Shown: positions 32,341 through 62,090 of the stretch, one piece after another
How the letters are laid out: every line of letters begins with the position of its first letter
How positions within the stretch are numbered: the first letter of the stretch is position 1
DNA from: Octopus vulgaris
Taxonomy: Eukaryota
Length of the DNA stretch: 64,000 bases
Assembly: GCA_951406725.2 (NCBI GenBank)
Contig: OX597819.1
Coordinates: 97,526,001-97,590,000 of the forward strand
Direction of reading: 5' to 3'
Translations under genes and position numbers: made by a program
The notes under the pieces: generated by a model
What the model was told of the DNA's origin: nothing
Databases searched by the model: none
Seen by the model: the letters and a program-made list of their open reading frames with translations, nothing else

Positions 32341-32580
32341 GAAAACTATGTTATGAAGTATTTTTCCATATTTCTCCTGAAGGAGGTGTCATTTTTTGGA
32401 CATTTGTAAAAGGGAAAGATCTTAAATTTTCCTTCTCCACATGTATCTGGGTATTTACTCAGTGAAACACCTAGATACATGTGGAGAAGGAAAATTTAAG
32501 ATCTTTCCCTTCTACAAATGTCTAAAGAATGACACCTCCTTCAGGAGAAATATGGAACAATACTTCATAACAAAGTTCTC
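32341..32580. repeat. 240-bp palindrome, loop orientation A
   Basis: About 116-bp inverted arms around ACTCAGTG. Confidence 0.95.
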
Positions 32581-32659
32581 CACCAAATTGAATGGCTGAA
32601 AATATTTCTATAATATTTTGTACTAGATGAAGGACGAAATTTGTAAAGTAAGTTGTATT

Positions 32660-32704
<45 letters not shown>

Positions 32705-32926
32705 CATGCACACAAACAGTACTACACATATGTACATATAAATAAATAAAAACACTCTTTCATCCAGATTCTCCAACCCATATCAGCACAGGTATCAAAC
32801 ATTGGATTGAAAGACTCACCAGTTGCAAAAATGTAAACACATTTTTTTCTTCTTTCCCTCCTCCTCCTCCTTCCTTTCATTCCCTTTCCCATTTGACACA
32901 CCTTTCAGATACACAGACACGCACAC

Positions 32927-32993
<67 letters not shown>

Positions 32994-33516
32994 CTCTCTC
33001 TCACACAAGACAATGATAAAAAAAGAAATCAAGACAATTTTTTGAAAAGTGACATTTTGCTCCCCTTGGAGTGACCAGCTGGGTGTGCCATTTCTAAAAG
33101 CCAATAATCACTTACCATTGAAAGACTGACCAGCTGCAAAGATATCAGCAAATATTTTTCTTCTTTCTCTCCTTATTCTTCCTTTCCTTCTCTTTTCTTT
33201 AAAACTTCTTTAAGATACAAAAACACACACGATCTCTCTCTCTCACTTTCTCCCCATTCTTCACCCTCTTGTAGTATCTTAAAATCTCTCCCCGCCCCTA
33301 CACACTCAATAATACTATAAAAGGAGACAAAATTCCTGCAAAAGTTCAATTTGAAAACTCCACTAGAGTGGACCAAAGCGCTTTTATATGATATATGATT
33401 CATAAAAAATGTAACATACTTATAAATATCTGTAAATATAAAACCATCCAGCAAATATAAAACCAACCAGTCAATTGGGCATTTTCTTCTTGGACAATTT
33501 CCAAAAGAAAAATCGT

Positions 33517-33608
33517 CGCCCGCAGAGGGACTTGAACCCGCGACCCTCAGATTTCATTACACGGCAGTTCTTAAAAGTCTGATGCTCTACCGACTGAGCT
33601 ATGCGGGC
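33517..33608 (-). tRNA. tRNA-Lys(UUU), 19-nt intron
   Basis: GCCCGCATAGCTCAGTCGGTAGAGCATCAGACTTTTA-[AGAACTGCCGTGTAATGAA]-ATCTGAGGGTCGCGGGTTCAAGTCCCTCTGCGGGCG, T5 terminator. Confidence 0.9.
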
Positions 33609-33664
33609 TGACATGCGATTCACCCAAAATTTAGATAGATTAAATCTTTTGAACTTAGCTAATA

Positions 33665-33909
33665 CTAGCAGTATCGCCCGGCGTTGCTCGGGTTTGTAAG
33701 GGAAATAATTATAAAGCATTTTTAGAGAGTTATAGCCAAAAAATGGGAAAAAATGATGGTAAATTTTTTTCTTAGTTAAAAAGGTCGAGTTGCGTCCCCT
33801 AGACGGTCTGTGGTTTAGAATCGGTTGAAAGCCGTGGTCAGAGTGAGGGTACGAGAAAACAGACACACAGAAACACGCACAGACAAACTGCCGTTTATAT
33901 AGAGAGAGA
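33665..33909 (-). mobile_element. Non-autonomous Helitron (245 bp)
   Basis: 5'-TC, 3' hairpin CCCGAGCAACGCCGGG plus CTAG, inserted at A|T without TSD; empty site ctaata|tatacctacg at 46791-46806. Confidence 0.92.
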
Positions 33910-34034
33910 TATACCTACGTACATACATACACACAAGCATACATACATATATACATACATACATGCATACATACATACATACATACATACATACATACAT
34001 ACATACATACATACACAAACAATACTCAGATGAA

Positions 34035-34070
34035 ATCTGAGGGTCGCGGGTTCAAATCCTTCTGGGGGCA
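34035..34070 (+). pseudogene. Inverted tRNA-Lys 3' half
   Basis: ATCTGAGGGTCGCGGGTTCAAATCC.. preceded by the intron end ATGAA; no 5' exon. Confidence 0.85.
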
Positions 34071-34206
34071 ACGAGTTTTCTTTTGGAAATTGGTCCAGAA
34101 GAAATAACCAATTGACAGGTTTCAAACAAGGAGGGGCCCAGTCGAATAGATCGACTCTAGTACGCAGGTGGTTTAATATAGCCATCAGTTATTTCAGTTG
34201 CAACAC

Positions 34207-34446
34207 GAGAACTATGTTATGAAGTATTTTTCCATATTTCTCCTGAAGGAGGTGTCATTCTTTGGACATTTGTAGAAGGGAAAGATCTTAAATTTTCCTT
34301 CTCCACATGTATCTGGGTATTTACTCAGCGAAACACCTAGAAACATGTGGAGAAGGAAAATTTAAGATCTTTCCCTTCTACAAATGTCCAAAGAATGACA
34401 CCTCCTTCAGGAGAAATATGGAACAATACTTCATAACATAGTTCTC
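34207..34446. repeat. 240-bp palindrome, loop orientation A
   Basis: GAGAACT..AGTTCTC arms. Confidence 0.95.
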
Positions 34447-34525
34447 CACCAAATTAAATGACTGAAAATATTTCTATAATAATTTGTACTAGATGAAGGA
34501 CCAATTTTGTAAAGTAAATTGTATT

Positions 34526-34614
<89 letters not shown>

Positions 34615-34843
34615 TACACACAAACAGTACTACACATATGTACATATGCATAAAGAAAATCACTCTTTCATCCAGGTTCCCCAACCCATATCAGCACAGG
34701 TATCAAACATTGGATTGAAAGACTCACCAGTTGCAAAAATGTAAACACATTTTTTTTTCTTTCCCTCCTCCTCCTTCCTTTCATTCCCCTTTCCCATTTG
34801 ACACACTTTTCAGATACACAGACACCCACACACACGCGCACAT

Positions 34844-34909
<66 letters not shown>

Positions 34910-34914
34910 GCGCA

Positions 34915-34949
<35 letters not shown>

Positions 34950-35484
34950 AAGACAATGATAAAAAAGAAATCCAGATAATTATTTGAAAAGTGACATTTT
35001 GCTCCCCTTGGAGTGACCAGCAGGGTTTGCCATTTCTAAAAACCAAGAATCACTTACCATTGAAAGACTGACCAGCTGCAAAGATATCAGCAAATTTTTT
35101 CTTCTTTGTCTCCTTCTTCTTCCTTTCCTTCTCTTTTTCTTTAACACCTCTTTAAGATACAAAAACACACACGATCTCTCTCTCTCACTTTCTCCTCATT
35201 CTTCACCCTCTTGTAGTATCTTATATCTTTCCCCGCCCCTACACACTCAATAATACTATAAAAGGAGACAAAATTCCTGCAAAAGTTCAATTTGAAAACT
35301 CCACTAGAGTGGACGAAAGCGCTCTTATATGATATATGATTCATAAAAAATGTAACATACTAATAAATATCTATAAATATAAACATACTAATAAATATCT
35401 GTAAATATAAAACCATCCAGCAAATATAAAACCAACTAGTCAATTGGACATTTCTTCCGGGACAATTTCCAAAAGAAAAGTCAT

Positions 35485-35576
35485 CGCCCGCAGAGGGACT
35501 TGAACCCGCGACCCTCAGATTTCATAACACGGCAGTTCTTAAAAGTCTGATGCTCTACCGACTGAGCTATGCGGGC
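35485..35576 (-). tRNA. tRNA-Lys(UUU), 19-nt intron
   Basis: Consensus exons; intron core GCCGTG. Confidence 0.9.
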
Positions 35577-36103
35577 TGACACGCCATTCAACGAAAATTT
35601 AGATAGATTAAATCTTTTGAACTTAGCTACTATATACATACGTGCATACATACATAAATACATACATGATAATTTAAGAGGAGCCATTGTGTGTGATTTT
35701 TGATGGCGGAAATGGATCTAGTACCATGTAAATGTATGTTTCTTTATAGATGAAAACTGTCGTCGGAGATCTATACTCATGCTTCAGAGAATTACCTGGG
35801 CCGTCAGTTAATTTACATGAGACAATTATTAAATTTTACTTGTTTCAGTCATTAGACTGTGGCCGAAGATGATGACATAGCGTGGTAGGAATAAAAGAGC
35901 AAAAGACTGAATGCTAATGGAAATAGAAGAGCGTAAAAATATTTCGAAAGACCGGAAGGACATTGCCAAGCTGGAAAACGTGATGGGCAGCAAGAAAGTA
36001 TTGAGCAAAAAGGGAAAACAATTGTAACAGTTGCCGGGTGAAAATGTGTTCGACTAAGAAAAAGAAAAAAATAAAGGAAATGGTATTGCATGAAAAAATT
36101 TGC

Positions 36104-36195
36104 CGCCCGCAGAGGGACTTGAACCAGCGACCCTCAGATTTCATAACTGGACAGTTCTTAAAAGTCTGATGCTCTACCGACTGAGCTATGCGGGT
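36104..36195 (-). pseudogene. tRNA-Lys(UUU) probable pseudogene
   Basis: A1:C72 and extra T-stem U51:C63 mismatches; intron core GTCCAG. Confidence 0.7.
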
Positions 36196-36709
36196 TTCCT
36201 ACCGCCCAGTTTAACTTTTACACAAATGAAATATGGACTTAGCTACACATTCCTTGTTAACTGAATCGATTGCTGCATAAAGCTGTCATCTGATGTCTTA
36301 TGTCACCCCGTAGTGATTACTAATAATTTCTTCACATTTACTACTGATATCTAACATAGTAATTCATTCACTCATCAAGTCCCATCGTGGTAAAGTCATA
36401 TTGGTCATTCAAAATGTATATACACTACTCACTTTCAATTATAATCTTTTCTACTCTAGGCACAAGGCCCGACATTTTTGTGGAGGGGCCAGTCGAATAG
36501 TTCGACCCCAGTGCGCAGGTGGTATAATATAGATAGAAAGAAGATAGAAAAAAATGAAGTACAGAAGTTATTTATCGAAAGATATTCGAATTCCAGCTTA
36601 CTCTTGTTTCCTAACACCTAATGAATTGAATTCAAGAAATTTAAGTTCTCATATCTGAAACCAGTTAATTGGGTATTTCTTCAAGGTCATTTTCGAAAAG
36701 AGAAGTCGT

Positions 36710-36800
36710 CGCCCACAGATGGACTTAAACCTGCGTCCCTCAGATTTCATCACTCGAAATGCTTAAATGTCTGATGCTCTACCGACTGAGCTATGCGGGC
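36710..36800 (-). pseudogene. tRNA-Lys(UUU) pseudogene
   Basis: U33A, damaged B-box and T-stem, 18-nt intron. Confidence 0.85.
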
Positions 36801-37193
36801 TGACAACTGTTTCAGCGAAAAGTTAGATAGATTAAATCTTTTAAACCTACCTACTATATACGTACGTACATATATACAAACATACATACAATACTACTTG
36901 CAATGGTTACAGTTCCATTACACAATCTCATTAAATTTTACTTGTTTCAGTCATTAGACTGTGGCCGAAGATGATGACATAGTGTGGTAGGAATAAAAGA
37001 GCAAAAGACTGAATGCTAATGGAAATAGAAGAGCCTAAAAATATTTCGAAAGACCGGAATGACGTTGCCAAGCTGGAAAATGTGATGGGCAGCAAGAAAA
37101 GATTGAGGAAAAAAGGAAAAAATTGTAAGAGTAGCAGGGCGAAAATGTGCTCGACTACGAGAAAAAAAAATGGTATTGCAAGTAAAATCATGT

Positions 37194-37285
37194 CGCCCGC
37201 AGAGGGACTTGAACCAGCGACCCTCAGATTTCATAACTCGGCAGTTCTTAAAAGTCTGATGCTCTACCGACTGAGCTATGCGGGC
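37194..37285 (-). tRNA. tRNA-Lys(UUU), 19-nt intron (weak T-stem)
   Basis: U51:C63 extra mismatch; intron core GCCGAG. Confidence 0.65.
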
Positions 37286-37727
37286 TTCCGACTGCCCGCT
37301 TTAACTTTTAGACAAATGAAATATTATGGACTTAGCTATACATTCCTTGTTAACTGAAACAATTGCTGTATAAAGCTGTCATCTGATGTCTTATGTCACC
37401 CCGTAGTGATTACTAATAATTCCTTCACATTTACTACTGATGTTTAATGTAGTAATTCGTTCACTCATCAAGTCCCATCCTGTTAAAGTCATATTGGTCA
37501 TTAAAAATGTATATACACTACTCTCTTTCAGTTATAATCTTTTCTACTTTAGGCACAAGGCCCGACATTTTTGTGGAAGGTGCCAGTCGAATAGATCGAC
37601 CCCAGTACGCAGGTGGTATAATATAGCACTGTACCTATGCCTGTGTGTACCTATGCCTGTACCTATGCCCTTGTGGGTAATAAAGAAATATGTATAATAT
37701 AGCCCTCATCTGTTTCAGTTGCATTAC

Positions 37728-37967
37728 GGGAAGTATGTTTTGAAGTATTTTTCCATATTTCTCCTGAAGGAGGTGTCATTCTTTGGACATTTGTAGAAGG
37801 GAAAGATCTTAAATTTTCCTTCTCCACATGTATCTGGGTGTTTCACTGAGTAAATACCCAGATACATGTGGAAAAGGAAAATTTAAGATCTTTCCCTTCT
37901 ACAAATGTCCAAAGAATGACACCTCTTTCAGGAGAAATATGGAAAAATACTTCATAGCAAAGTTCTC
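37728..37967. repeat. 240-bp palindrome, loop orientation B (inverted)
   Basis: Centre reads GTGTTTCACTGAGTAAATAC. Confidence 0.95.
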
Positions 37968-38046
37968 CACCAAATTAAATGGCTGAAAATATTTCTATAA
38001 TATTTTGTACTAGATGAAGAAACAATTTTGTAAAGTAAATTGTATT

Positions 38047-38109
<63 letters not shown>

Positions 38110-38609
38110 CTCTCTCACAAGACAATGATAAAAAAGAAATCCAGACAATTTTTTGAAAAGGGACATTTTGCTCCCCTTGGAGTGACTAGCTGGGTTTGCC
38201 ATTTCTAAAAGCCAAGAATCACTTACCATTGAAAGACTGACCAGCTGCAAAGATATCAGTAAATTTTTTCTTCTTTCTCTCCTTCTTCTTCTTTTCCTTC
38301 TCTTTTTCTTTAACATTCCTTTAAGATACAAAAACACACACGATCTCTCTCTCCTCTCTCTCACTTTCTCCCCATTCTTCACTCTCTTGTAGTATCTTAT
38401 ATCTCTCCCCGCCCCTACACACTCAATAATACTATAAAAGGAGACAAAATTCCTGCAAAAGTTCAATTTGAAAACTCCACTAGAGTGGACGAAAGCGCTT
38501 TTATATGATACTAGCAGAATTGCCCGGCGTTGCTCGGGGCTGAATTGCTTGAAAGTACTGTTAATGATTGCACTGAATTATGATGATTATTCATGCAAAT
38601 ATTGATAAA

Positions 38610-39120
38610 ATTTTACGGTGGGCGATAAGGACTTAACGATCAAACGTGTGCCATTGCATTGTTTTGGGGGAACCAAATTTCTGATGAGCATTATAGGGGC
38701 ACCAACGTTAAGTTTGAGAAAGTGTGGTGGTAGTCCGGGGTGCTCAAAGGAATTGAGTACCTCTATTGGATAGTTGATGACGTCCTCTGTGTGTCAGGAG
38801 TTGTATCGATAGACTGATATACATAGACTTCCCCAGGAATGAGTTTTAGCATTTCATCATTAATATGGTGAACAGTTTTATTCCTCGGGGCCAGTATAGC
38901 CTTTTTGCCAATCCAATCCATATTCTGATAATTAGCTTGTAGATCTGGGAACACTGCATCTCTGAGATCAGAAGGCGTCTTAACAACGGTACAAATGGAA
39001 TCGATGGCAATATTACCATTTTCATCCCCTGGTATTTTGCCTTCGCCAAGTGCAAGGAGGGTGTGAGGAAATGCTCTTGATGTGATATTACGTCGCATAT
39101 TGGTGTGAAGTTTGAGAGTT
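38610..39120 (-). pseudogene. Helitron Pif1-family helicase fragment
   Basis: LHTNMR..LLALGEG..AILAPRNKTVHHIN..YQSID, frameshift, then [41 protein letters not shown]. Confidence 0.9.
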
Positions 39121-39346
39121 ATTTCCCTCTATTAAAAAAATATGCATTAAAATGGAAAAAAATGATGGTAAATTATTTGTAAAATCGTAGACTCATCGTA
39201 GACGCGCGCTAATACCCAGAAGGGCTCGATATGAATGACGACTATAAGATACCCGGTTTTGGTTAAACTGCATCGCAAAATGTGGGAGTAGTTAGGAATC
39301 TAAATCGGAGTAGACAGACACACAACCTTTCTTTTATATATAAAGA

Positions 39347-39870
39347 TTTTCGTCCTAAAAAACTTTGTATGGATTGAATGGTTACCTCTATGGAAATATA
39401 TACACGCACATTATACATACATGTGTGTATAGATGAATATATAAATACATTTAAATATCTATATACACTTTTGGACGATCTTTCTGTTTCTTAGAGATAA
39501 CTTTAGATCTTATTTTCCTCCTAAAAACTTTGTATGGAGTGAATGGTTACCTCTATGGAAATATATACACACACGTTATACATACATGTGTGCATAGATG
39601 AATATATAAATACATTTATATATCTATATACACTTTTGGGCGATCTTTCTGCTACTTAGAGATAACTTTAGATCTTATATTCGTCCTAAATAACTTTGTA
39701 TGGAGTGAATGGTTACCTCTATGGAAATATATACACACACATTATACATACATCTGTGTATAGATGAATATATAAATACATTTAAATATCTATATACACT
39801 TTTGGGCGATCTTTCTGCTACTTGGATATACTTTAGATCTTATATTCGTCCTAAAAAACTTTGTATGAAT
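39347..39870. repeat. About 165-bp minisatellite x3 inside the Helitron
   Basis: Units start near 39351, 39517, 39682, 39847. Confidence 0.85.
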
Positions 39871-41087
39871 TGAAAAAGAAAATGAATTGAAATTTTTAAG
39901 AAAGGAATTTGTTTACATACATGTGTGAAATGGCAAATGTTTGTGCAGTTGTCCGAAATGGAACCAGGGTTAATGTGTGGAACTGATGTATTATAATGAA
40001 TAGTCCTTCTTGTTGTGAATATTAATTTGATTAATATGAACCGAAAACCAGTGGTGTAGCATATAAGACCATAGGTGATCTTCTAGCAAAAAGGATGACC
40101 AGTCTGACTGGCTCATCCCTGTCAAACACTCACACACACGCACACATACACACGCACCTTCACACACACACACACACGCACACACACACACTCACACACA
40201 CGCACACACACACGTTAGCTTACAATTTTATTTATATATTTGCGTGTCTATGTGTGTAAAGAGGAAGTGGGAGTAATATGCAGAGTAAAGGCTTTGAAGT
40301 GAAAGAGTGAAATGTTAGTTTTCTCGAATTTTTTCTGAAATGGGGGTGAAATTGAAAGAAATTTTGTATGCCATGACCGAATGGAAGTACTTTGAAAAAT
40401 CATAGGTAAACTCTAATTGAAGAAATTGTGTGAGGAGTAAATCGTTATGTATTTATTTGCTTCTGTTTGCTGTGTTTTTTTTTTGAGTAGTGATTTAAGG
40501 TACACTTGCAAAGAGAAAGTATGAGAAATTATGGTGATAGCATGAGTGAAGCAGTTCATCCGTTTTATATAAATACTTTCACTTTAATCGTTGCACACTT
40601 GCAAAAAGAAAGGAGGAGAAATTAGGGTGATAGCATGAGTGAAGCAGTTCGCTCCGTTTTTGTGTGTGTGTGTGTGCTGTAGCCCACACTAAGAAAAGCA
40701 CTTCACTTACACACCACAATGTGAGTTTTCTCGAAATTTTGCTTAATTGGGGGTGAAATTTGAAAAACTGTACCTGGCACGACCCGATGTATTCTACTCT
40801 TAAAAATGCTAGGTAAATTGTAATTGAAGAAATCCTATATTGTAGATTTCTATAAGAGACAAAGGGAGGCACATAAAATCTGCCTTTTATAATAAGAGAT
40901 AAGAGACAAAGGGAGGCAGATAAAATCTGCCTTTTATAATAAGAGATATGATTCATAAAAATTGTAACATACTAATAAATATCTGTAAATATAAAACAAT
41001 CCAGCAAATATAAAACCATTCCACAAATATAAAACCAACCAGTCAATTGGACATTTCTTCTGCGACAACATCCAAAAGAAAAATCGT

Positions 41088-41179
41088 CGCCCGCAGAGGG
41101 ACTTGGACCCGCGACCCTCAGATTTCATAACGCGGCAGTTCTTAAAAGTCTGATGCTCTACCGACTGAGCTATGCGGGC
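41088..41179 (-). tRNA. tRNA-Lys(UUU), 19-nt intron (U55C)
   Basis: B-box GGTCCAAGTCC; intron core GCCGCG. Confidence 0.6.
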
Positions 41180-41344
41180 TGACATGCGATTCAGCGAAAA
41201 TTTAGATAGATTAAATCTTTTGAACTTAGCTACTATATACAAACGTACAAACATACACCCAAACATACATACATATATACATACGTACATGCATACATTC
41301 ATACATACATACATACATACATACACAAACAATACTCAGATGAA

Positions 41345-41380
41345 ATCTGAGGGTCGCGGGTTCAAATCCCTCTGCAGGCG
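41345..41380 (+). pseudogene. Inverted tRNA-Lys 3' half
   Basis: 3' exon only, B-box intact. Confidence 0.85.
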
Positions 41381-42247
41381 ACGAGTAATCTTTTTGGAAA
41401 TTGTCCCAGAAGAAAAAACAAATTGACTGGTTTCAAATATGGGAATTTAAATTTCAATAATTGAATTGATTGGGTGTGGAAACAGCTGCAAGCAGGAATT
41501 TCTCTGCATGAATTCGGAAGTGCCCGAAATCGTCGAGTTATATCGAAGGAATGCCCATATATTAACAATTGGTTGTGTCTTCATGGGGTCACTCTGCATG
41601 CTCACGCTAATGTATAATGACTATTCTTTACAGGTTTCTATTAAATGTGTGAGTGTGATTTTCATTCTTTACCAAAGGATATCTATCTATCTCTATATAT
41701 ATCTTGTTTCTGGCACTAATATCATAATATCTGAAATAATCAATGTAATAATCAATGGTGTTGTTCTTAATGCGCAGCAGTGGTGCAACAAAGTTTAATA
41801 TATGAAAATACATGATAATTTAATAGGAGCCATTGTGTGTGATTTTAGATGGCGGAAATGGATCTAGTACGATGTAGATATATGTTTCTTTGTAGACGAA
41901 AACTGTAGTCAGAGATCTATACTCATGCTTCGCAGAATTACCAGGGCCGTCAGTTAATTTACATGTGACAATGATTATATTTTATTTGTTTCAGTCAATA
42001 GACTGTGGCCGAAGATGATGACATAGCGTGGTAGGAATAAAAGAGCAAAAGACTGAATGCTAATGGAAATAGAAGAGCGTAAAAATATTTCGAAAGACAG
42101 AAATGACATTGCCAAGCTGGAAAATGTGATGGGCAGCAAGAAATGATTGAGCAAAAAGGGAAAACAATTGTAACAGTTGCAGGGTGAAAATGTGTTCGAC
42201 TAAGAAAAATGAAAAAAAAAAAAATGGTATTGCAAGAAAAAAATTGT

Positions 42248-42339
42248 CGCCCGCAGAGGGATTTGAACCCGCGACCCTCAGATTTCATAACCCGGCAGTT
42301 CTTAAAAGTCTGATGCTCTACCGACTGAGCTATGCGGGC
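42248..42339 (-). tRNA. tRNA-Lys(UUU), 19-nt intron
   Basis: Consensus exons (T-loop TTCAAAT); intron core GCCGGG. Confidence 0.9.
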
Positions 42340-42742
42340 TTCCGACCATCCACTCTAACTTTTAGACAAATGAAATATAATGAACTTAGCTACACATTCC
42401 TTGTTAACTGAAACGATTGTTGTATAAAGCTGTCATCTGATATCTTACGTTACCCCGTAGTGATTACTAATAATTCCTTCACATTTACTGCTGATATTTA
42501 ATATAGTAATTCGTTCACTCATCAAGTCCCAACCTGGTAAAGTCATATTGGTCATTCAAAATGTATATACACTACTCTCTTTTAATTATAATCTTTTCTA
42601 CTCTAGGCACAAGGCCCGACATTTTTGTGGAGGGGGCCAGTCGATTAGATCGACCCCAGTACGCAGCTGGTATAATATAGCCATCATTTGCTTCAGTTGC
42701 ATCACGTAATATCTCCTCCTCCTCTACCATCACCACTACAAC

Positions 42743-42795
<53 letters not shown>

Positions 42796-44014
42796 GCAGC
42801 ACCCGAACATTGCTGTCTGGAGTTCTAGGATTCAGAGAGCTGGTTACTTCGTCTCCTTGGCGTGTAGGTGACCGAGATCTCTGCAAATCCTCCTTAATGA
42901 GATGCCAGTTCATTGAAGGCATACACATTGCAGGTGAGTGGACTAAAGTGGACATGATGTAAAGTGTCTTGCTCAAGAATAGAATACGCTGCCCCATTCC
43001 GGTAATCGAAACCTCGGTCTTGGGAGCAACACTCTTACCACTCGGTCACGCGCCTTCACTATCCTTTCTACTGTAGGTATAAGACACAAAGTTTTGGGGT
43101 TTGTTCGAGGGTTGGGGTAGGTTAGTCGATTACATCGACCCAAGTCCTCAACTGGTACTTACTTCATTGTCGGAATTTGAGTTCAGAACGTAGAACCGGG
43201 AGAAGCGTTACTAAGCATTTTGTTCGGCGTGCCAGTGATACTGCCAGTCCACCACAGCCTTATGCGCCTTCCGAATGATAAGGGAATAAAAAAATCAACT
43301 CAAAAATATATATCATGATCATATATCATGTATAATAATTGTCACATGCAGATGTTCCTTAAAAGGAATTATGTGAAAACAGGACATCGATTTCCATTTC
43401 CATTTTCCATCCCAATAAATAAATTATATTTCACACATCTTAAGTCATAACTCTTTAATTTCTTTTTCATTTATTTATAGAATTGTCAATATTTTGTAAG
43501 ACTACTGCGACATGATTACTGACAAAGTTACACTGAGTCTTAAAAACTCCCTTCGGTCACGAATGACCAAGAAGGTTCCTCTCCGAGTCACAAGTCCGGG
43601 CAAGGTTGTTTGTCGAATACCAGTCAGTCCTTTCCACAACGCTGATGTTGTCCAAGAAAACGACAAAGGCCGATTCAGTTTGGCAACAGTAATGTCGCAA
43701 ATTATTTCTACTGCTAAGTGAACTGGAGCAATATGAAATGAAGTGTCTTGCTCAGAAACACAACTCATAGTCCGGTCTAGGAATCGAACTTACAACATCA
43801 CGATTGTAAGCCCAATGTTCTAACCACTGAGCCATGCATCTTCACAAAAAGGTCATCGTAAAGCCACAACGGAGAATCGAACTTTGTATCTCTCAAATTA
43901 TCTTGAAAACACCTAATAATTTATAAACATCTAATGTTAAAGTGGAAAAATTATCAGAACATATTTCTATTCAGTTTTGCAAATATAGAATACTGTACGA
44001 TTGACTATTTGTTT

Positions 44015-45455: not shown

Positions 45456-45695
45456 GAGAACTATGTTATGAAGTATCTTTCCATATTTCTCCTGAAGGAG
45501 GTGTCATTCTTTGGACATTTGTAGAAGGGAAAGATCTTAAATTTTCCTTCTCCACATGTATCTGGGTATTTACTCAGTGAAACACCTAGAAACATGTGGA
45601 GAAGGAAAATTTAAGATCTTTCCCTTCTACAAATGTCCAAAGAATGACACCTCCTTCAGGAGAAATATGGAACAATACTTCATAACAAAGTTCTC
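45456..45695. repeat. 240-bp palindrome, loop orientation A
   Basis: As 32341. Confidence 0.95.
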
Positions 45696-47113: not shown

Positions 47114-47353
47114 GAGAACTATGTTATGAAGTATTTTTCCATATTTCTCCTGAAGGAGGTGTCATTCTTTGGACATTTGTAGAAGGGAAAGATCTTAAAT
47201 TTTCCTTCTCCACATGTATCTTGGTATTTACTCAGCGAAACACCTAGAAACATGTGGAGAAGGAAAATTTAAGATCTTTCCCTTCTACAAATGTCCAAAG
47301 AATGACACCTCCTTCAGGAGAAATATGGAAAAATACTTCATAACATAGTTCTC
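47114..47353. repeat. 240-bp palindrome, loop orientation A
   Basis: As 34207. Confidence 0.95.
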
Positions 47354-50140: not shown

Positions 50141-50380
50141 GAGAACTATGTTATGAAGTATTTTTCCATATTTCTCCTGAAGGAGGTGTCATTCTTTGGA
50201 CATTTGTAGAAGGAAAAGATCTTAAATTTTCCTTCTCCACATGTATCTGGGTATTTACTCAGTGAAACACCTAGAAACATGTGGAGAAGGAAAATTTAAG
50301 ATCTTTCCCTTCTACAAATGTCCAAAGAATGACACCTCCTTCAGGAGAAATATGGAACAATACTTCATAACAAAGTTCTC
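50141..50380. repeat. 240-bp palindrome, loop orientation A
   Basis: As 32341. Confidence 0.95.
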
Positions 50381-50459: not shown

Positions 50460-50495
<36 letters not shown>

Positions 50496-50705: not shown

Positions 50706-50789
<84 letters not shown>

Positions 50790-51582: not shown

Positions 51583-51624
<42 letters not shown>

Positions 51625-51875
51625 ACTTTCTCCACATTCTTCACCCTCTTGTAGAATCATATATCTCTCCCCGCCCCTACACACTCAATAATACTATAAA
51701 TGGAGACAAAATTCTTGCAAAAGTTCAATTTGAAAACTCCACTAGAGTGGACGAAAGCGCTTTTATATGATATATGATTCATAACAAATGTAACATACTT
51801 ATAAATATCTGTAAATATAAAACCAACCAGTCAATTGGACATTTCTTCTGCAACAATTTCCAAAACAAAAAACGT

Positions 51876-51967
51876 CGCCCGTATAGGGACTTGAACCCGC
51901 GACCCTCAGATTTCATAACACGGTAGTTCTTAAAAGTCTGATGCTCTACCGACTGAGCTATGCGGGC
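51876..51967 (-). pseudogene. tRNA-Lys(UUU) probable pseudogene
   Basis: Duplicate of 48330. Confidence 0.65.
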
Positions 51968-52092
51968 TGACACACAAAACAACGAAAACTTAGATAGATT
52001 AAATCTTTTGAACTTAGCTACTATATACATACGTACATACATACATACATACATACATACATACATACATACACAAACAATACTCAGATGAA

Positions 52093-52122
52093 ATCTGAGG
52101 GTCGCGGGTTCAAATCCCTCTG
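52093..52122 (+). pseudogene. Inverted, 3'-truncated tRNA-Lys 3' half
   Basis: Duplicate of 48559. Confidence 0.8.
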
Positions 52123-52722
52123 ATTATTTAATCCCATTGATTATTTAAGATTTTCATTTTTTACCAAAGGACATCTATCTATATAAATATTTTGTTTTCT
52201 GGCACTAATATTACAATATCTTAAAATGTAATAATCAATAGTGTTGCTCTTAATGCGCAGCAGTGGTGCAACGAAGTTTAATATATGAAAATACATGATA
52301 ATATAAGAGGAGCCATTGTGTGTGATTTTAGATGGCTGAAATGGATCTAGTACCATGTAAATGTATGTTTCTTTATAGATGAAAACTGTAGTCAGAGATC
52401 TATACTCATGCTTCACAGAATTACCAGGACCGTCAGTTAATTTACTTGTGACAATGATTAAATTTTACTTGTTTCAGTAATTAGACTGTGGCCGAAGATG
52501 ATGACATAGCGTGGCAGGAATAAAAGAGCAAAAGACTGAATGCTAAGGGAAATAGAAGAGCGTAAAAATATTTCGAAAGACCGGAAGGACATTGCCAAGC
52601 TGGAAAACGTGATGGGCAGCAAGAAAGGATTGAGCAAAAAGGGAAAGCAATTGTAACAGTTGCCGGGTGAAAATGTGTTCGACTACGAGAAAAAAAAATG
52701 GTATTGCAAGAAAATAATATGT

Positions 52723-52814
52723 CACCCGCAGAGAGACTTGAACCCTCGACCCTCAGATTTCATAACACGACAGTTCTTAAAAGTCTGATGCTCTACCGAC
52801 TGAGCTATGCGGGC
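52723..52814 (-). tRNA. tRNA-Lys(UUU), 19-nt intron (variant)
   Basis: A50-U64 paired, G1.U72, G52.U62; intron core GTCGTG. Confidence 0.7.
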
Positions 52815-53328
52815 TTCCTCTCGTCCAGTTTAACTTTTAGGCAACTGAAATATTATGGACTTAGCTAGACATTCCTTGTTAACTGAAACGATTGTTGCAT
52901 AGAGCTGTCATCTGATATCTTATGTCACACCGTAGTGATTACTAATAATTCCTTCACATTAACTACTGGTATTTAATATAGCAATTCGTTCACTCATCAA
53001 GTCCCATCCTGGTAAAGTCATATTGGTCATTCAAAATGTATATACACTACTCACTTTCAATTATAATCTTTTCTACTCTAGGCACAAGGCCCGACATTTT
53101 TGTGGAGGGGCCAGTCGAATAGTTTGACCCCAGTGCGCAGGTGGTATAATATAGATAGAAAGATGATAGAAAAAAATGATGTACAGAATGTTTTATTGAA
53201 AGAAATTCGAATTCCTGCTTACACTTGTTTCCACACCTAATGAATTCAATTCAAGAAATTTAAGTTCTCACATCTGAAAACAGTTAATTGGGTATTTCTT
53301 CAAGGTCATTTTCGAAAAGAGAAGTCGT

Positions 53329-53419
53329 CGCCCGCAGAGGGACTTAACATGCGTCCCTCAGATTTCATCAATCTAAAGTTCTTAAAAGTCTGATCCTCTA
53401 CCGACTGAGCTATACGGGC
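53329..53419 (-). pseudogene. tRNA-Lys(UUU) pseudogene
   Basis: Duplicate of 49794. Confidence 0.85.
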
Positions 53420-53690
53420 TGTCAAGCGTTTCAGCGAAAAGTTAGATAGATTAAATCTTTTGAACCTATCTACTATATACATACGTACATATATACAAAC
53501 ATACATACATACAATACTACTTGCAATGGTTACATTGCAATGGTTACATTTCTACTCTAGGCACAAGGCCCGACATTTTTGTAGAGGGGGGCCAGTCGAA
53601 TAGATCGACCTCAGTGCGCAGGTGTTTAGCCCATAGTGGGTAATAAAGAAATGGGTATAACATAGTCCTCATCTGTTTCAGTTGCATCAC

Positions 53691-53930
53691 GAGAACTATG
53701 TTATGAAGTATTTTCCCATATTTCTCCTGAAGGAGGTGTCATTCTTTGGACATTTGTAGAAAGAAAAGATCTTAAATTTTCCTTCTCCACATGTATCTGG
53801 GTATTTACTCAGTGAAACACCTAGAAACATGTGGAGGAGGAAAATTTAAGATCTTTCCCTTCTACAAATGTCCAAAGAATGACACCTCTTTCAGGAGAAA
53901 TATGGAAAAATACTTCGTAACAAAGTTCTC
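53691..53930. repeat. 240-bp palindrome, loop orientation A
   Basis: As 32341. Confidence 0.95.
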
Positions 53931-54009
53931 CCCCAAATTAAATGGCTAAAAATGTTTCTATAATATTTTGTACTAGATGAAGGACCAAATTTGTAAAGTA
54001 AATTGTATT

Positions 54010-54045
<36 letters not shown>

Positions 54046-54273
54046 GCACACAAACAGTACTACACATATGTACATATAAATAAATAAAAACACTCTTTCA
54101 TCCAGATTCTCCAACCCATATCAGCACAGGTATCAAACATTGGATTGAAAGACTCACCAGTTGCAAAAATGTAAACACATTTTTTCTTGTTTCCCTCCTC
54201 CTCCTCCTTCCTTTCATTCCCTTTCCCATTTGACACTTCCTTTCAGATACACAGACACCCACACACACGCGCA

Positions 54274-54337
<64 letters not shown>

Positions 54338-54894
54338 CTCTCTCTCTCTCTCTCACACAAGACAATGATAAAAAAAGAAATCAAGACAATTTTTTGAAAA
54401 GTGACATTTTGCTCCCCTTGGAGTGACCAACTGGGTTTGCCATTTCTAAAAGCCAATAATCACTTACCATTGAAAGACTGACCAGCTGCAAAGATATCAG
54501 CAAATTTTTTCTTCTTTCTCTCCTTCTTCTTCCTTTCCTTCTCTTTTTCTTTAACACCTCTTTAAGATACAAAAACACACACGATCTCTCTCTCTCTCTC
54601 TGTCTCTCTCTCTCTCTCTCACTTTCTCCCCATTCTTCACACCCTCTTGTAGTATCTTAAAATCTCTCCCCGACCCTACACACTCAATAATACTATAAAA
54701 GGAGACAAAATTCCTGCAAAAGTTCAATTTGAAAACTCCACTAGAGTGGACCAAAGCGCTTTTATATGATATATGATTCATAAAAAATGTAACATACTAA
54801 TAAATATCTGTAAATATAAAACCATCCAGCAAATATAAAACCAACCAGTCAATTGGGCATTTTCTTCTTGGACAATTTCCAAAAGAAAAATCGT

Positions 54895-54986
54895 CGCCCG
54901 CAGAGGGACTTGAACCCGCGACCCTCAGATTTCATAACACGGCAGTTCTTAAAAGTCTGATGCTCTACCGACTGAGCTATGCGGGC
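54895..54986 (-). tRNA. tRNA-Lys(UUU), 19-nt intron
   Basis: Consensus exons; intron core GCCGTG. Confidence 0.9.
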
Positions 54987-55175
54987 TGACATGCGATTCA
55001 ACAAAAATTTAGATAGATTAAATCTTTTGAACTTAGCTAATATATATCTACGTACATACATACACACAAGCATACATACATATATACATACATACATGCA
55101 TACAAACATACATACATACATACATACATACATACATACATACATACATACATACACAAACAATACTCAGATGAA

Positions 55176-55211
55176 ATCTGAGGGTCTTGGGTTCAAATCC
55201 TTCTGGGGGCG
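55176..55211 (+). pseudogene. Inverted tRNA-Lys 3' half
   Basis: 3' exon only, degenerate. Confidence 0.8.
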
Positions 55212-55347
55212 ACGAGTTTTCTTTTGGAAATTGGTCCAGAAGAAATAACCAATTGACAGGTTTCAAACAAGGAGGGGTCCAGTCGAATAGATCGACTCCA
55301 GTACGCAGCTGGTTTAATATAGCCATCAGTTATTTCAGTTGCAACAC

Positions 55348-55587
55348 GAGAACTATGTTATGAAGTATTTTTCCATATTTCTCCTGAAGGAGGTGTCATT
55401 CTTTGGACATTTGTAGAAGGGAAAGATCTTAAATTTTCCTTCTCCACATGTATCTAGGTATTTACTCAGCGAAACACCTAGAAACATGTGGAGAAGGAAA
55501 ATTTAAGATCTTTCCCTTCTACAAATGTCCAAAGAATGACACCTCCTTCAGGAGAAATATGGAAAAATACTTCATAACAAAGTTCTC
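55348..55587. repeat. 240-bp palindrome, loop orientation A
   Basis: As 34207. Confidence 0.95.
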
Positions 55588-55665
55588 CACCAAATTAAAT
55601 GACTGAAAATATTTCTATAATATTTGTACTAGATGAAGGACCAAATTTGTAAAGTAAATTGTATT

Positions 55666-55715
<50 letters not shown>

Positions 55716-55930
55716 ACAAACAGTACTACACATATGTACATATACGTAAAGAAAATCACTCTTTCATCCAACACGTATCAGCACAGGTATCAAACATTGG
55801 ATTGAAACCCTCACCAGTTGCAAAAATGTAAACACATTTTTTTTTCTTTCCCTCCTCCTCCTTCCTTTCATTCCCCTTTCCCATTCGACACACTTTTAAG
55901 ATACACAGACACCCACACACACGCGCACAT

Positions 55931-55968
<38 letters not shown>

Positions 55969-56498
55969 GCGCACCCTCTCTCTCTCTCTCTCAGAAGACA
56001 ATGATAAAAAAGAAATCCAGTTAATTATTTGAAAAGTGACATTTTGCTCCCCTTGGAGTGACCAGCTGGGCTTGCCATTTTTAAAAGCCAATAATCACTT
56101 ACCATTGAAAGACTGACCAGCTGAAAATATAACAGCAAATTTTTTCTTCTTTCTCTCCTTCTTCTCCCTTTCCTTCTATTTTTCTTTAACACTACTTTAA
56201 GATACACAAACACACACGATCTCTCTCTCTCTCTTTCTCTCTCTCTCACTTTCTCCCCATTCTTCACCCTCTTGTAGAATCATATATCTCTCCCTGCCCC
56301 TACACACTCAATAATACTATAAAAGGAGACAAAATTCTTGCAAAAGTTCAATTTGAAAACTCCACTAGAGTGGACGAATGCGCTTTTATATGATATATGA
56401 TTCATAACAAACGTAACATACTTATAAATATCTGTAAATATAAAACCAACCAGTCAATTGGACATTTCTTCTGCAACAATTTCCAAAACAAAAAACGT

Positions 56499-56590
56499 CG
56501 CCCGCAGAGGGACTTGAACCCGCGACCCTCAGATTTCATAACACGGTAGTTCTTAAAAGTCTGATGCTCTACCGACTGAGCTATGCGGGC
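56499..56590 (-). tRNA. tRNA-Lys(UUU), 19-nt intron
   Basis: Consensus exons; intron core ACCGTG. Confidence 0.9.
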
Positions 56591-56719
56591 TGACACACAA
56601 AACAACGAAAATTTAGATAGATTAAATCTTTTGAACTTAGCTACTATATACATACGTACATACATACATACATACATACATACATACATACATACACACA
56701 CAAACAATACTCAGATGAA

Positions 56720-56749
56720 ATCTGAGGGTCGCGGGTTCAAATCCCTCTG
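56720..56749 (+). pseudogene. Inverted, 3'-truncated tRNA-Lys 3' half
   Basis: As 48559. Confidence 0.8.
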
Positions 56750-57314
56750 ATTATTTAATCCCATTGATTATTTAAGATTTTCATTTATTACCAAAGGACA
56801 TCTATCTATATAAATATCTTGTTTTCTGGCACTAATAATACAATATCTTAAAATGTAATAATCAATAGTGTTGCTCTTAATGCGCAGCAGTGGTGCAACG
56901 AAGTTTAATATATGAAAATACATGATAATATAAGAGGAGCCATTGTGTGTGATTTTAGATGGCTGAAATGGATCTAGTACCATGTAAATGTACGTTTCTT
57001 TATAGATGAAAACTGTAGTCAGAGATCTATACTCATGCTTCACAGTATTACCAGGGCTGTCAGTTAATTTACATGTGACAATTATTATATATTATTTGTT
57101 TCAGTCATTAGACTGTGGCCGAAGATGATGACATAGCGTGGTAGGAATAAAAGAGCAAAAGACTGAATGCTAATGGAAATAGAAAACGTGATGGGCAGCA
57201 AGAAAGGATTGAGCAAAAAGGGAAAGTAATTGTAACAGTTGCAGGGTGACAATGTGTTCGACTAAGAAAAAAAAAAAAAAAAAAAGAAATGGTATTGCAT
57301 GATAAAAATTGTGT

Positions 57315-57406
57315 CGCCCGCAGAGGGACTTGAACCCGCGACCCTCAGATTTCATAACTAGACAGTTCTTAAAAGTCTGATGCTCTACCGACTGAGCTAT
57401 GCGGGC
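57315..57406 (-). tRNA. tRNA-Lys(UUU), 19-nt intron
   Basis: Consensus exons; intron core GTCTAG. Confidence 0.9.
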
Positions 57407-57798
57407 TTCCGTCCGTTCAGTTTAACTTTTAGACAAATGAAATATTATGGACTTAGCTAGACATTCCTTGTTAACTGAAACGATTGTTGTATAAAGCTGT
57501 CATCTGATATCTTATGTCACCCCGTAGTGATTACTAATAATTCCTTCACATTTACTACTGATATCTAATATAGTAATTCGTTCACTCATCAAGTCCCATT
57601 CTGGTAAAGTCATACTTGTCATACAAAATGTATATACACTACTCTATTTCAATTATAATCATAACAATGTTCTCCACCAAATTAAATGGCTTAAAATATT
57701 TCTATAATAATTTGTACTAGATGAAGGACCAATTTTGTAAAGTAAACTGTATTAAACACACAGACACACACACACACACACAGACACACAGACACACA

Positions 57799-57846
<48 letters not shown>

Positions 57847-58063
57847 CACACAAACAGTACTACACATATGTACATATACATAAATATTAATAATCTTTCA
57901 TCCAGATTCTCCAACGCATATCAGCACAGGAATCAAACACTGGATTGAAAGATTTATACAGTGGTATAAATGTCAACACAATTATTTCTTCTTCTTCTCT
58001 TTCTTCTATCTTCCTTCTCCAGCGACAACCCTTCCAGATACACAGGCACCCACACACACATGT

Positions 58064-58123
<60 letters not shown>

Positions 58124-58622
58124 CAATGACAAAAAGAAATCCAGACAATTTTTGGAGAAGTGACATTTTGTCCCCCTTGAAGTGGCCAATTGAGTTTGCC
58201 ATTTCTAAAAGCCAAGAGTCATTTACCATTGAAAGACTGACTAGCTGCAAAGATATCAACAAATTTTTTCTTCTTTCTCTCCTTCTTCCTTTCCTTCTCT
58301 TTTTCTTTAACACACCTTTAAGATACAAAAACACACATGATCTCTCTCTCTCACGTTCTCCCCATTCTTCACCCTCTTGTAGTATCTTATATCCCTCCCC
58401 GCCCCTACACACACAATAATGCTATAAAAGGAGACAAAATTCCTGCAAAAGTTCAATTTGAAAACTCCACTAGAGTGGACGAAAGCGCTTTTATATGATA
58501 TATGATTCATAAAAAATGTAACATACTAATAAATATCTGTAAGTATAAAACCATCCAGCAAATATAAAACCAACCTGTCAATTGGACATTTCTTCTGCGA
58601 CAATTTCCAAAAGAAAAATCGT

Positions 58623-58714
58623 CGCCCGCAGAGGGACTTGAACCCGCGACCCTCAGATTTCATAACGCAACAGTTCTTAAAAGTCTGATGCTCTACCGAC
58701 TGAGCTATGCGGGC
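58623..58714 (-). tRNA. tRNA-Lys(UUU), 19-nt intron
   Basis: Consensus exons; intron core GTTGCG. Confidence 0.9.
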
Positions 58715-59093
58715 TTCCATCCGTTCAGTTTAACTTTTAGACAAATGAAATATTATGGACTTAGCTAGACATTACTTCTTAACTGAAACGATTGTTGTAT
58801 AAAGCTGTCATCTGATATCTTATGTCACCCCGTAGTGATTACTAATAATTCCTTCACATTTACTACTGATATTTAATATAGTAATTCGTTCACTCATCAA
58901 GTCCCATCCTGGTAAAGTCATACTTGTCATACAAAATGTATATACACTACTCTCTTTCAATTATAATCATAACAATGTTCTCCACCAAATTAAATGGCTT
59001 AAAATATTTCTATAATAATTTGTACTAGATGAAGGACCAATTTTGTAAAGTAAACTGTATTAAACACATACACACACACACACAGACACACAG

Positions 59094-59140
<47 letters not shown>

Positions 59141-59431
59141 AACAGTACTACACATATGTACATATACATAAATATTAATAATCTTTCATCCAGATTCTCC
59201 AACGCATATCAGCACAGGAATCAAACACTGGATTGAAAGATTTATACAGTGGTATAAATGTCAACACAATTATTTCTTCTTCTTCTCTTTCTTCTATCTT
59301 CCTTCTCCAGCGACAACCCTTCCAGATACACAGGCACCCACACACACATGTGCACACACACACACACATGTGCACACACACACACATGTGCACACACACA
59401 CGTGCACACATACATGTGCACACATACATGT

Positions 59432-59486
<55 letters not shown>

Positions 59487-59705
59487 AATGATAAAAAGAA
59501 ATCCAGACAATTTTTTGAGAAGTGACATTTTGCCCCCCGTGAAGTGGTCAGTTGAGTTTGCCATTTCTAAAAGCCAAGAAATATTTTCTATTGAAAGACT
59601 CACCAGTTGCAAAAATGTAAACACATTTTTTTCTTCTTTCTCTCCTCCTCCTTCCTTTCATTCCCTTTCCCATTTGACACCTTATTCGGATACACAGACA
59701 CCCAC

Positions 59706-59756
<51 letters not shown>

Positions 59757-60258
59757 CTCTCTCTCCCTCTCACAAGACAAGGATAAAAAAGAAATCCAGA
59801 CAATTTTTTGAAAAGGGACATTTTGCTCCCCTTGGAGTGACCAGCTAGGTTTGCCATTTCTAAAAGCCAAGAATCCCTTACCATTGAAAGACTGACCAGC
59901 TGCAAAGATATCAGTAAATTTTTCTTCTTTCTCTCCTCCTTCTTCTTCGTGTCCTCTTTTTCTTTAACACTTATTTAAGATACAAAAACACACGATCTCT
60001 CTCTCTCACTTTCTCCCCGTTCTTCACCCTCTTGTAGTATCTTATATCTCTCCCCGATCCCTACACACTCAATAATACTATAAAAGGAGACAAAATTCCT
60101 GCAAAAGTTCAATTTGAAAACTCCAATAGAGTGGACGAAAGCCCTTTTATATGATATATGATCCATAAAAAATGTAGCATACTAATAAATATCTGTAAAT
60201 ATAAAACCATCCAGCAAATATAAAACCAACCAGTCAATTGGACCAAAAGAAAAATCGT

Positions 60259-60350
60259 CGCCCGCAGAGGGACTTGAACCCGCGACCCTCAGATTTCATA
60301 ACTCGGCACTTCTTAAAAGTCTGATGCTCTACCGACTGTGCTATGCTGAC
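60259..60350 (-). pseudogene. tRNA-Lys(UUU) pseudogene
   Basis: 5' acceptor strand GTCAGCA and D-stem/A-box mutation. Confidence 0.8.
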
Positions 60351-60485
60351 TGACACATGATTCAACAAAAATTTAGATAGATTAAATCTTTTGAACTTAG
60401 CTACTATATACATACGTACATACACACAAGCATACATACATACATACATACATACATACATACATACAAACAATACTCAGATGAA

Positions 60486-60521
60486 ATCTGAGGGTCGCGG
60501 GTTCAAATCCCTCTGCGAGCG
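60486..60521 (+). pseudogene. Inverted tRNA-Lys 3' half
   Basis: 3' exon only, B-box intact. Confidence 0.85.
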
Positions 60522-61393
60522 ACGAGTTTTCTTTTGGAAATTGTCCCAGAAGAAATAACCAATTGACAGGTTTCAAATATGAGAATTTAAATTTCTATAA
60601 TTCAATTGATTGGATGTGGAAACAGCTGCAAGCAGGAATTTCTCTGCATCAATTCGAATTTTTTTGAATTCGGAAATGCCCAACGTCGTCGAGTCATATC
60701 GAGGGAATGCCCATATATTAACAATTGGCTGTGTCTTCATGGGGTCACTCTGTTAGCTTACGCTAATGTATATTGACTATTCTTTACAGGTTTCTATTAA
60801 ATGTGTGAGTGTGATTTTCATTCTTTATCAAAGGATATCTATCTCTCTATATATCTTGTTTTCTGGCACTAATATCATAATATCTTATATAATCAATGGT
60901 GTTGTTCTTAATGCGCAGTTGTGGTGCAACGAAGTTTAATATATGAAAATACATGATAATATAAGAGGAGCCATTGTGTGTGATTTTAGATGGCTGAAAT
61001 GGATCTAGTACCATTTAAATGTATGTCTCTTTATAGATGAAAACTGTAGTCAGAGATCTATACTCATGCTTCATAGAATTACCAGCGCCGTCAGTTAATT
61101 TACATGTGACAATGATTATATTTTACTTGTTTCATCCATTAGACTGTAGCCGAAGATGATGACATAGCGTGGTAGGAATAAATGAGCAAAAGACTGAATG
61201 CTAAGGGAAATAGAAGAGCGTAAAAATATTTCGAAAGACCGGAATGACATTGCCAAGCTGGAAAACGTGATGGGCAGCAAGAAAGGATTGAGCAAAAAGG
61301 GAAAACAATTTTAACAGTTGCAGTGTGAAAATATGTTCGACTAAGAAAAAGAAAAAAAAAAAAAAAGAAATGGTATTGCATGAAAAAATTTGA

Positions 61394-61485
61394 CGCCTGC
61401 AGAGGGACTTGAACCCGCGACCCTCAGATTTCATAACCCGACAGTTCTTAAAAGTCTGATGCTCTACCGACTGAGCTATGCGGGC
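61394..61485 (-). tRNA. tRNA-Lys(UUU), 19-nt intron
   Basis: C4:A69 mismatch; intron core GTCGGG. Confidence 0.75.
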
Positions 61486-61851
61486 TGTCGTTCGTCCGGT
61501 TTAACTTTTAGACAAATGAAATATTTTGGACTTAGCTATACATTCCTTGTTAACTGAAACGATTTTTGAATAAAGCCGTCATCTGAAGCCTTATGTCACC
61601 TCGTAGTGATTACTAATAATTCCTTCACATTTACTACTGATATTTAATATAGTAATTCGTTCACTCATCAAGTCCCATCCTGGTAAAGTCATACTTGTCG
61701 TACAAGATGTATATACACTACTCACTTTCAATTATAATATTTTCTACCCTAGGCACAAGGCCCGATGTTTTTGTGGAGTGGGCCAGTCGAATAGATCGAC
61801 CCCAGTGCGCAGCTGGTATAATATAGCCCTCATCTGTTTCAGTTGCATCAC

Positions 61852-62090
61852 GAGAACTATGTTATGAAGCATTTTTCCATATTTCTCCTGAAGGAGGCGC
61901 CATTCTTTGGACATTTGTAGAAGGGAAAGATCTTAAATTTTCCTTCTCCACATGTATCCAGGTGTTTCACTGAGTAAATACCCAGATACATGTGGAGAAA
62001 GAAATTTAAGATCTTTCCCTTCTACAAATGTCCAAAGAATGACACCTCCTTCAGGAGAAATATGGAACAATACTTCATAACAAAGTTCTC
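61852..62090. repeat. 239-bp palindrome, loop orientation B (inverted)
   Basis: Centre reads GGTGTTTCACTGAGTAAATACCC. Confidence 0.95.

Follow-up and report, generated by a model that had tools for sequence, protein, structure and literature searches.

Inverted centre of a palindrome in an octopus tRNA-Lys array, most likely the result of an old and passive error of copying or recombination

In a stretch of 64,000 nucleotides from Octopus vulgaris (GCA_951406725.2, contig OX597819.1, positions 97,526,001 to 97,590,000; in the following called the window, with position 1 at its first nucleotide) a tandem cluster of intron-containing transfer RNA genes for lysine (tRNA-Lys) carries several copies of a 240-bp palindrome. 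In two of these copies the short centre has the reverse-complementary orientation, while everything outside the palindrome is unturned. This raises the question of how the centre was turned, and whether the locus behaves as a genetic switch. The analysis indicated that the flipped centre is most likely an old, passive error of copying or recombination of a well-known kind, and not a genetic switch.

Nine palindrome copies and the orientation of their centres

Nine copies of the palindrome were found, at the positions given by a first-pass annotation of the window. The centre is in the forward orientation in seven of them, i.e., c1 (32341-32580), c2 (34207-34446), c4 (45456-45695), c5 (47114-47353), c6 (50141-50380), c7 (53691-53930) and c8 (55348-55587). 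The remaining two, c3 (37728-37967) and c9 (61852-62090), have the reverse complement. Each palindrome is composed of 116-bp arms and an 8-nt loop, and the total length is 240 bp in eight of the nine copies and 239 bp in c9. The predicted DNA fold of one copy had an energy of -127 kcal/mol (z = -29), and 0 of 200 shuffled sequences folded equally well. A tenth full copy is not present in the 64-kb window. The arms had been described as near-perfect, with GAG and CTC at their ends. This was borne out for the arms as such, which have 8, 4, 8, 6, 3, 6, 10, 3 and 10 mismatches in c1 to c9, and it does not hold for the tips throughout, as the left tips of the copies at 32341 and 37728 are mutated. 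When the most frequent forward centre was exactly reverse-complemented and compared over a central segment of 26 bp, c3 and c9 each matched it at 25 of 26 positions, and the single deviating base was not the same in the two copies.

The outer flanks are collinear and of unchanged orientation in all nine copies, including those with a flipped centre, just as the first-pass annotation had reported. Furthermore, a left flank of 37 bp and a right flank of 80 bp are constant for every copy. Therefore, the palindrome entered or arose once and was then amplified together with its unit, and the earlier proposal that it was co-amplified from one site, and not inserted nine times, is upheld. Separate insertions of two orientations were rejected on the same grounds, because the flanks are identical in all copies.

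Three further units are informative about the palindrome's borders. At 57659-57674 the right arm is reduced to its terminal 15-16 bp, which are fused directly to the upstream tRNA spacer; the rest of the palindrome and about 180 bp of the left flank are missing, and the junction has a 2-bp microhomology. A second copy of this deletion junction is found with an offset of 1308 bp at 58967-58982. The idea that these two units represent ancestral empty sites was rejected, as both retain the tip of the right arm and both are devoid of the spacer with which even the most divergent unit (29831) begins. In the third unit (42669-42706) the left flank stops exactly at the first base of the palindrome and is followed by unrelated sequence.

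Strand exchange between the arms

Differences between the two arms served as markers for the course of the inversion. Both c4 and c6 have left and right arms that differ at arm positions 8, 23, 105, 109 and 113, and the founder palindrome probably had these five mismatches, all of which are present in these two copies. The polarity of position 8 is kept in c3 and in c9, and that of position 23 is kept in c9. As the outer arm markers retain their left/right polarity, the inversion was internal to the palindrome, and an inversion of the whole element was rejected. Single events with two switches were enumerated on the reconstructed founder, and solutions were obtained for both flipped copies. 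In arm positions, the exchange points are 109-112 on the left and 8-22 on the right for c3, and 105-108 on the left and 23-104 on the right for c9. For c3 and c9 alike, the states at all founder sites are obtained with one event per copy.

Taken together, these observations support the view that the centre was inverted by a rare, passive strand exchange between the arms, to which we assign a probability of about 0.83. This is in line with the first-pass annotation, which had named arm-to-arm recombination as one possible cause of the inversion; the points of exchange fall within the arms, and the inversion is accompanied by arm-to-arm copying. In such an event the growing strand would detach from its template close to the inner border of the left arm, would then continue by copying the opposite strand across the loop and some of the left arm, and would finally return to the template in the right arm. 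A single asymmetric event of this type could both turn the centre and place left-arm bases on the right arm. It may have taken the route of template switching during replication or of a crossover with gene conversion, and the same process without inversion of the loop could have led to patchy left-to-right correction in forward copies.

Traces of copying between the arms were found at the four founder sites 8, 23, 105 and 109. There, 11 of the 36 copy-sites are symmetric, 10 of them towards the left arm, while point mutation along the flank tree would be expected to yield 0.48. Shared descent reduces the 11 symmetric copy-sites to about 8-10 events. This pattern suggests a patchy arm-to-arm copying of the left onto the right arm. 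The three common right-arm variants point the same way, as all three of their pairs are tree-incompatible (by reading), compared with 28 of 91 site pairs in the flanks.

Such copying did not keep the arms homogeneous, which the first-pass annotation had also proposed. The arms of one copy diverge by 4.16% (40/962), and left and right arms from different copies diverge by 4.16% as well (320/7696). Between copies, same-side arms diverge by 2.9-3.0%, and the flanks by 4.2-4.9%. Within arm positions 1-107 there are 24 variable columns, comprising three common right-arm variants and 21 others, and none of these 21 later variants is present on both arms. Since variation on both arms is absent from every column of arm positions 1-107, a shuffle test of the within-copy arm distance was degenerate (standard deviation 0), and the column count was used in its place. 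Irrespective of whether the arms of the founder were mismatched or symmetric, arm-to-arm copying is too rare or too slow to hold 116-bp arms alike.

Several points weigh against strand exchange between the arms as the explanation. The founder state is itself a reconstruction, and the four sites used were chosen because they are variable. Moreover, the left-to-right bias is in part built into the definition of the founder sites. A symmetric founder, together with right-arm mutations that spread between units, could account for the pattern without any arm-to-arm copying. Exchange between units is a plausible source of symmetry because the flanks are recombinant, with 28 of 91 flank site pairs being incompatible with a tree. 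The link between flipping and symmetry at site 105 is weak (2/2 versus 1/7, Fisher p = 0.083). Template switching, crossover with conversion, cruciform resolution and break repair would all be expected to yield the same product. The orientation of the centres is read from the assembly only, and in the flank tree an approximately unbiased (AU) test left a clade of c3 and c9 unrejected (p = 0.11).

The latter result bears on the number of events. It is doubtful that there was a single inversion, with c3 and c9 both having inherited the flip or one of them having received it by conversion between array units, although both copies are symmetric at site 105 and array units do exchange sequence. In the best flank tree (microsatellites excluded, 726 of 822 columns retained, flank of c3 shorter) c3 and c9 stand apart, and they were joined in only 8% of 200 bootstraps. 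Their flank distance of 17/358 is like that of typical pairs, and no informative site groups c3 and c9 alone. In addition, the two centres differ at sites 108 and 109, and one flip would require extra conversions in c3 on top of the inversion, while otherwise one event per copy suffices. The exchange ranges of c3 and c9 do not overlap, which favours two events, and two independent flips are thus probable.

It is very unlikely that the flips are artefacts of assembly or of library construction from a hairpin-forming sequence. Arms of more than 100 bp generally leave the orientation of a loop ambiguous to short reads, and when c3 and c9 are un-flipped on paper, the resulting sequences are compatible with forward copies. 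However, the window is free of N, and 24 near-identical tRNA copies and long microsatellites are resolved, which points to an assembly from long reads. Furthermore, both flipped copies have private arm mutations, and their centres differ from one another.

The flips appear to be old events, because c3 and c9 have each gathered private mutations since. The flank tree has a length of 0.18 substitutions per site; over 240 bp this amounts to about 43 substitutions, set against two flips. Given two events, the flip rate is about 11 per substitution per site, with a 95% range of 1.3-40. The flips are therefore rare and old, and represent slow mutation rather than switching.

Origin, turnover and possible function of the palindrome

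Two origins of the palindrome have to be weighed. The odds are about even that it is a foldback miniature inverted-repeat transposable element (MITE) with GAG...CTC ends and a 3-bp CAC target duplication, which was inserted once, before the array grew. The palindrome is short, non-coding and bounded by terminal inverted repeats (240 bp, 116-bp arms), as is typical of a MITE, and its ends are sharp. That such elements are present in this genome is evident from an unrelated palindrome of about 200 bp at 507-712, and the left tip of the 240-bp palindrome coincides exactly with a rearrangement junction. CAC had been noted at both ends of several copies and is indeed found on both sides in seven of the nine; however, this counts as one observation, since the flanks are common to all nine, and a chance match has a probability of about 2-3% per register. 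An empty site and a dispersed copy are both absent from the 64-kb window: the left and right flanks are nowhere joined directly among its units, and no copy lies outside the array. Assignment of MITE ends to a superfamily calls for the same length of target duplication and for the 11 terminal bases, according to the part of PMC4455052 available to us. No superfamily match was found in the literature consulted; the 4-bp, AT-rich target duplications of Sola2, as given in the available part of PMC3627910, do not fit.

Searches in other collections concerned the same question. The gapped arm pattern had no match in a metagenome collection or among viral contigs, collections not expected to hold an animal genome, and a blastn search of the palindrome against plasmids, which are not expected to hold animal sequence, gave no match. 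The segment 60480-62170 was compared with contigs of sequencing runs; of the 24 runs listed, 20 held part of it and none at least half of its words, and this was counted as no evidence. The listing spanned 12 studies and six organism labels, all matches were contigs, and RNA data were not among the holders listed.

Alternatively, a short imperfect inverted repeat, today's inner 9-bp stem, might have primed a foldback and so given rise to the palindrome in situ, a tentative explanation with the odds somewhat against it. About 107 bp of the right arm would have been copied and then joined to the upstream spacer. Two of the 9 bp of the inner stem are mismatched, compared with 3 of 107 outside it (Fisher p = 0.048, post hoc), and in the unit at 42669-42706 the left flank is present but palindrome and right flank are both missing, with a 1-bp overlap. 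In yeast, foldbacks can be seeded by an 11-bp repeat that is imperfect and has a spacer of 6 bp, as described in the accessible part of PMC10622511. However, according to the same part of that report, seed mismatches were corrected in yeast sae2-deletion clones, while two remain here; a single-arm ancestor is absent from the window, and the CAC on both sides is left unexplained. The junction at the palindrome tip fits a transposon end and a foldback junction alike. An origin other than a MITE-like insertion or a local foldback is rather unlikely.

A more far-reaching reading would be that the palindrome belongs to an undescribed foldback transposon family with GAG...CTC ends and a 3-bp duplication, the ends of which rearranged the tRNA-Lys cluster and the centre of which is still inverting by polar left-to-right exchange, at a frequency high enough for its orientation to segregate within animals. 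This is quite unlikely. If it were true, the array could serve as a natural reporter for palindrome repair with multiple copies, and perhaps also as a source of long double-stranded RNA.

It had also been suggested that the palindrome is prone to breaks and thereby drives the turnover of the array. Two junction types do touch its tips: one is the deletion at 57659/58967, the other the junction at 42706. However, according to a reading of the module map these are only two of about 14 junction types, most of which lie in tRNA genes, microsatellites or short direct repeats, and nine copies survive intact. A role of this kind is unlikely. A function of the palindrome, either as a source of hairpin RNA or as an enzyme-driven invertible switch that affects tRNA genes, is highly improbable. 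It would fold as a 116-bp duplex, and the divergence of arms between copies (2.9-3.0%) is slightly lower than that of the flanks (4.2-4.9%). Nevertheless, merely about two flips are found per 43 expected substitutions, several array units are devoid of the palindrome, and the tRNA genes are about 370-440 bp and about 940 bp away. An enzyme-driven switch would have a fixed crossover site and frequent inversion, but the exchange points of c3 and c9 differ and inversion is infrequent. By eye, none of the nine open reading frames (ORFs) of at least 150 amino acids in the window resembles a recombinase. The Rfam scan gave only shape matches to long microRNA hairpins, with 0 of 33 matches reaching the gathering score, and no curated microRNA family was detected in the whole window.

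Two further candidates found no support. For a Penelope-like inverted pseudo-long terminal repeat (pseudo-LTR), no hammerhead was among the 33 Rfam matches (E up to 10), and no ORF among the nine looks like a reverse transcriptase (by eye). The other candidate was a viral flip-flop terminal hairpin. Overall, no function of the palindrome is indicated.

The surrounding array, other features and known systems

The tandem cluster of intron-containing tRNA-Lys(UUU) genes occupies 29831-63141 on the minus strand and contains 24 full-length copies as well as nine 3' fragments on the opposite strand. A blastn analysis of the window placed all 24 full-length copies on the minus strand, and Rfam RF00005 matched 22 times in the cluster. 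ARAGORN predicted Lys(ttt) with an intron at position 38 in 18 of 21 calls; the intron has 19 nt in 17 of these calls and 21 nt in one, and the 19-nt introns are variable. Position 38 is the usual intron site of eukaryotic tRNA genes, as stated in the accessible part of PMC10275265. The label "tRNA-Stop" for tRNAs of the array was rejected as a product of reading the genes without introns. The array extends from 29.8 kb past the end of the window, with at least 24 full-length copies within 33 kb, and the module map revealed that the tRNA 5' flank is of two types, that microsatellites are present and that many units are rearranged. It also contains pieces that resemble the tail of a short interspersed nuclear element (SINE).

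The palindrome is a passenger within one spacer type of this cluster, and several units have none. Where that spacer is intact, one tRNA gene has the palindrome about 370-440 bp upstream of it; the next tRNA gene is followed by a T-run, and the palindrome is found about 940 bp past this run. In the two palindrome-less units the internal spacer sub-repeats, at 57858-58261 and 59146-59914, are more divergent (84-87%), and they are longer at 59 kb; a collapsed form of these sub-repeats appears to be common to the units with a palindrome. The nine opposite-strand (+) 3' fragments (34030, 41340, 46937, 48554, 52088, 55171, 56715, 60481 and 63189) are 35-41 bp long and start close to the 3' splice site, and several retain downstream flank. 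They are an old inverted partial duplication that was amplified together with the array.

Short insertions at 33665-33910, 38512-38560 and 40690-40950 are each confined to one array unit, and their ends resemble non-autonomous Helitron/Helentron elements. A 165-bp tandem repeat (39349-39874, 3.2 copies, 93% matches) lies within an interruption of the array. At 29380-29620 a segment of about 200 bp is flanked by TA microsatellites; we take it to resemble a Penelope-like pseudo-LTR, and Rfam detected no hammerhead in it at E up to 10. Outside the array, the unrelated palindrome at 507-712 has 85-bp arms with 95% complementarity and an AT-rich loop of 25 nt. Terminal inverted repeats of 42 bp (93% complementary) at 12746-14044 flank a transposase-like frame of 251 amino acids (13042-13797), and this is presumably a mariner-like element, a label based on familiar motifs. 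A C2H2 zinc-finger frame on the plus strand (9946-11523, 525 amino acids) contains about 18 tandem units of 84 bp, and its homologues are generic animal C2H2 proteins with 45-63% identity among the 120 matches listed.

The flipped palindrome is a new instance of the inversion of a spacer between inverted repeats (microinversion), a class known from yeast, from human and chimpanzee, and from plastids. The arms are near-perfect, the centre is the reverse complement, the flanks are unchanged and, given the reconstructed founder, the exchange points lie in the arms. No description of the palindrome or of the array was found in the literature searched, a search that did not extend to repeat libraries and supplements. 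As it stands the finding matters little, being a clean illustration from nature of a class of mutation that is already known. It has some modest value in that exchange points and a rough flip rate can be derived from nine paralogues whose arms carry markers, and in that these paralogues show arm-to-arm copying in a palindrome with 116-bp arms to be too slow to maintain identical arms. It would matter more if the palindrome represented a new transposon family, or if its orientation switched within an animal.

Comparison with known systems clarifies what is shared and what is particular here. As a short, non-coding element that consists nearly entirely of inverted repeat and has a possible 3-bp target duplication, the palindrome resembles foldback or long-terminal-inverted-repeat MITEs; unlike these, it is known here from one array only, in a 64-kb window without dispersed copy or empty site. 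With seeded foldback duplications, as far as the accessible part of PMC10622511 describes them, it has in common a short imperfect central stem, a small loop and a junction at the tip, while its duplicated arm is just about 107 bp long and the seed mismatches are uncorrected. Hairpin-loop inversions in plastid spacers are frequent and polymorphic according to the part of PMC2903610 that was available, and those of trnH-psbA likewise occur inside a palindrome in a spacer beside a tRNA gene. In contrast to the plastid cases, the octopus palindrome resides in a nuclear animal array, has a much longer stem, and a terminator role is not indicated. The microinversions between human and chimpanzee in the available part of PMC8755829 comprise 17-33 nt and lie without exception between inverted repeats. 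The asymmetric segment found here is of similar size (12-26 bp), but the arms are longer, and nine paralogues provide exchange points and a rate. The closest parallels are offered by template switching in yeast, for which the accessible part of PMC8604942 describes arm homogenisation and spacer inversion, at times in one event, as recurrent and reversible. As in the Ripley-type events reported there, the centre is reverse-complemented between inverted arms and the flanks are unchanged, and as in the REG2 case, inversion and arm correction are probably combined in one event, and recurrence is likely. The yeast arms have only about 10-16 bp, whereas the 116-bp arms of the octopus palindrome are long enough for homologous recombination, and the inversion is non-coding and is seen among paralogous units of one array and not between strains.

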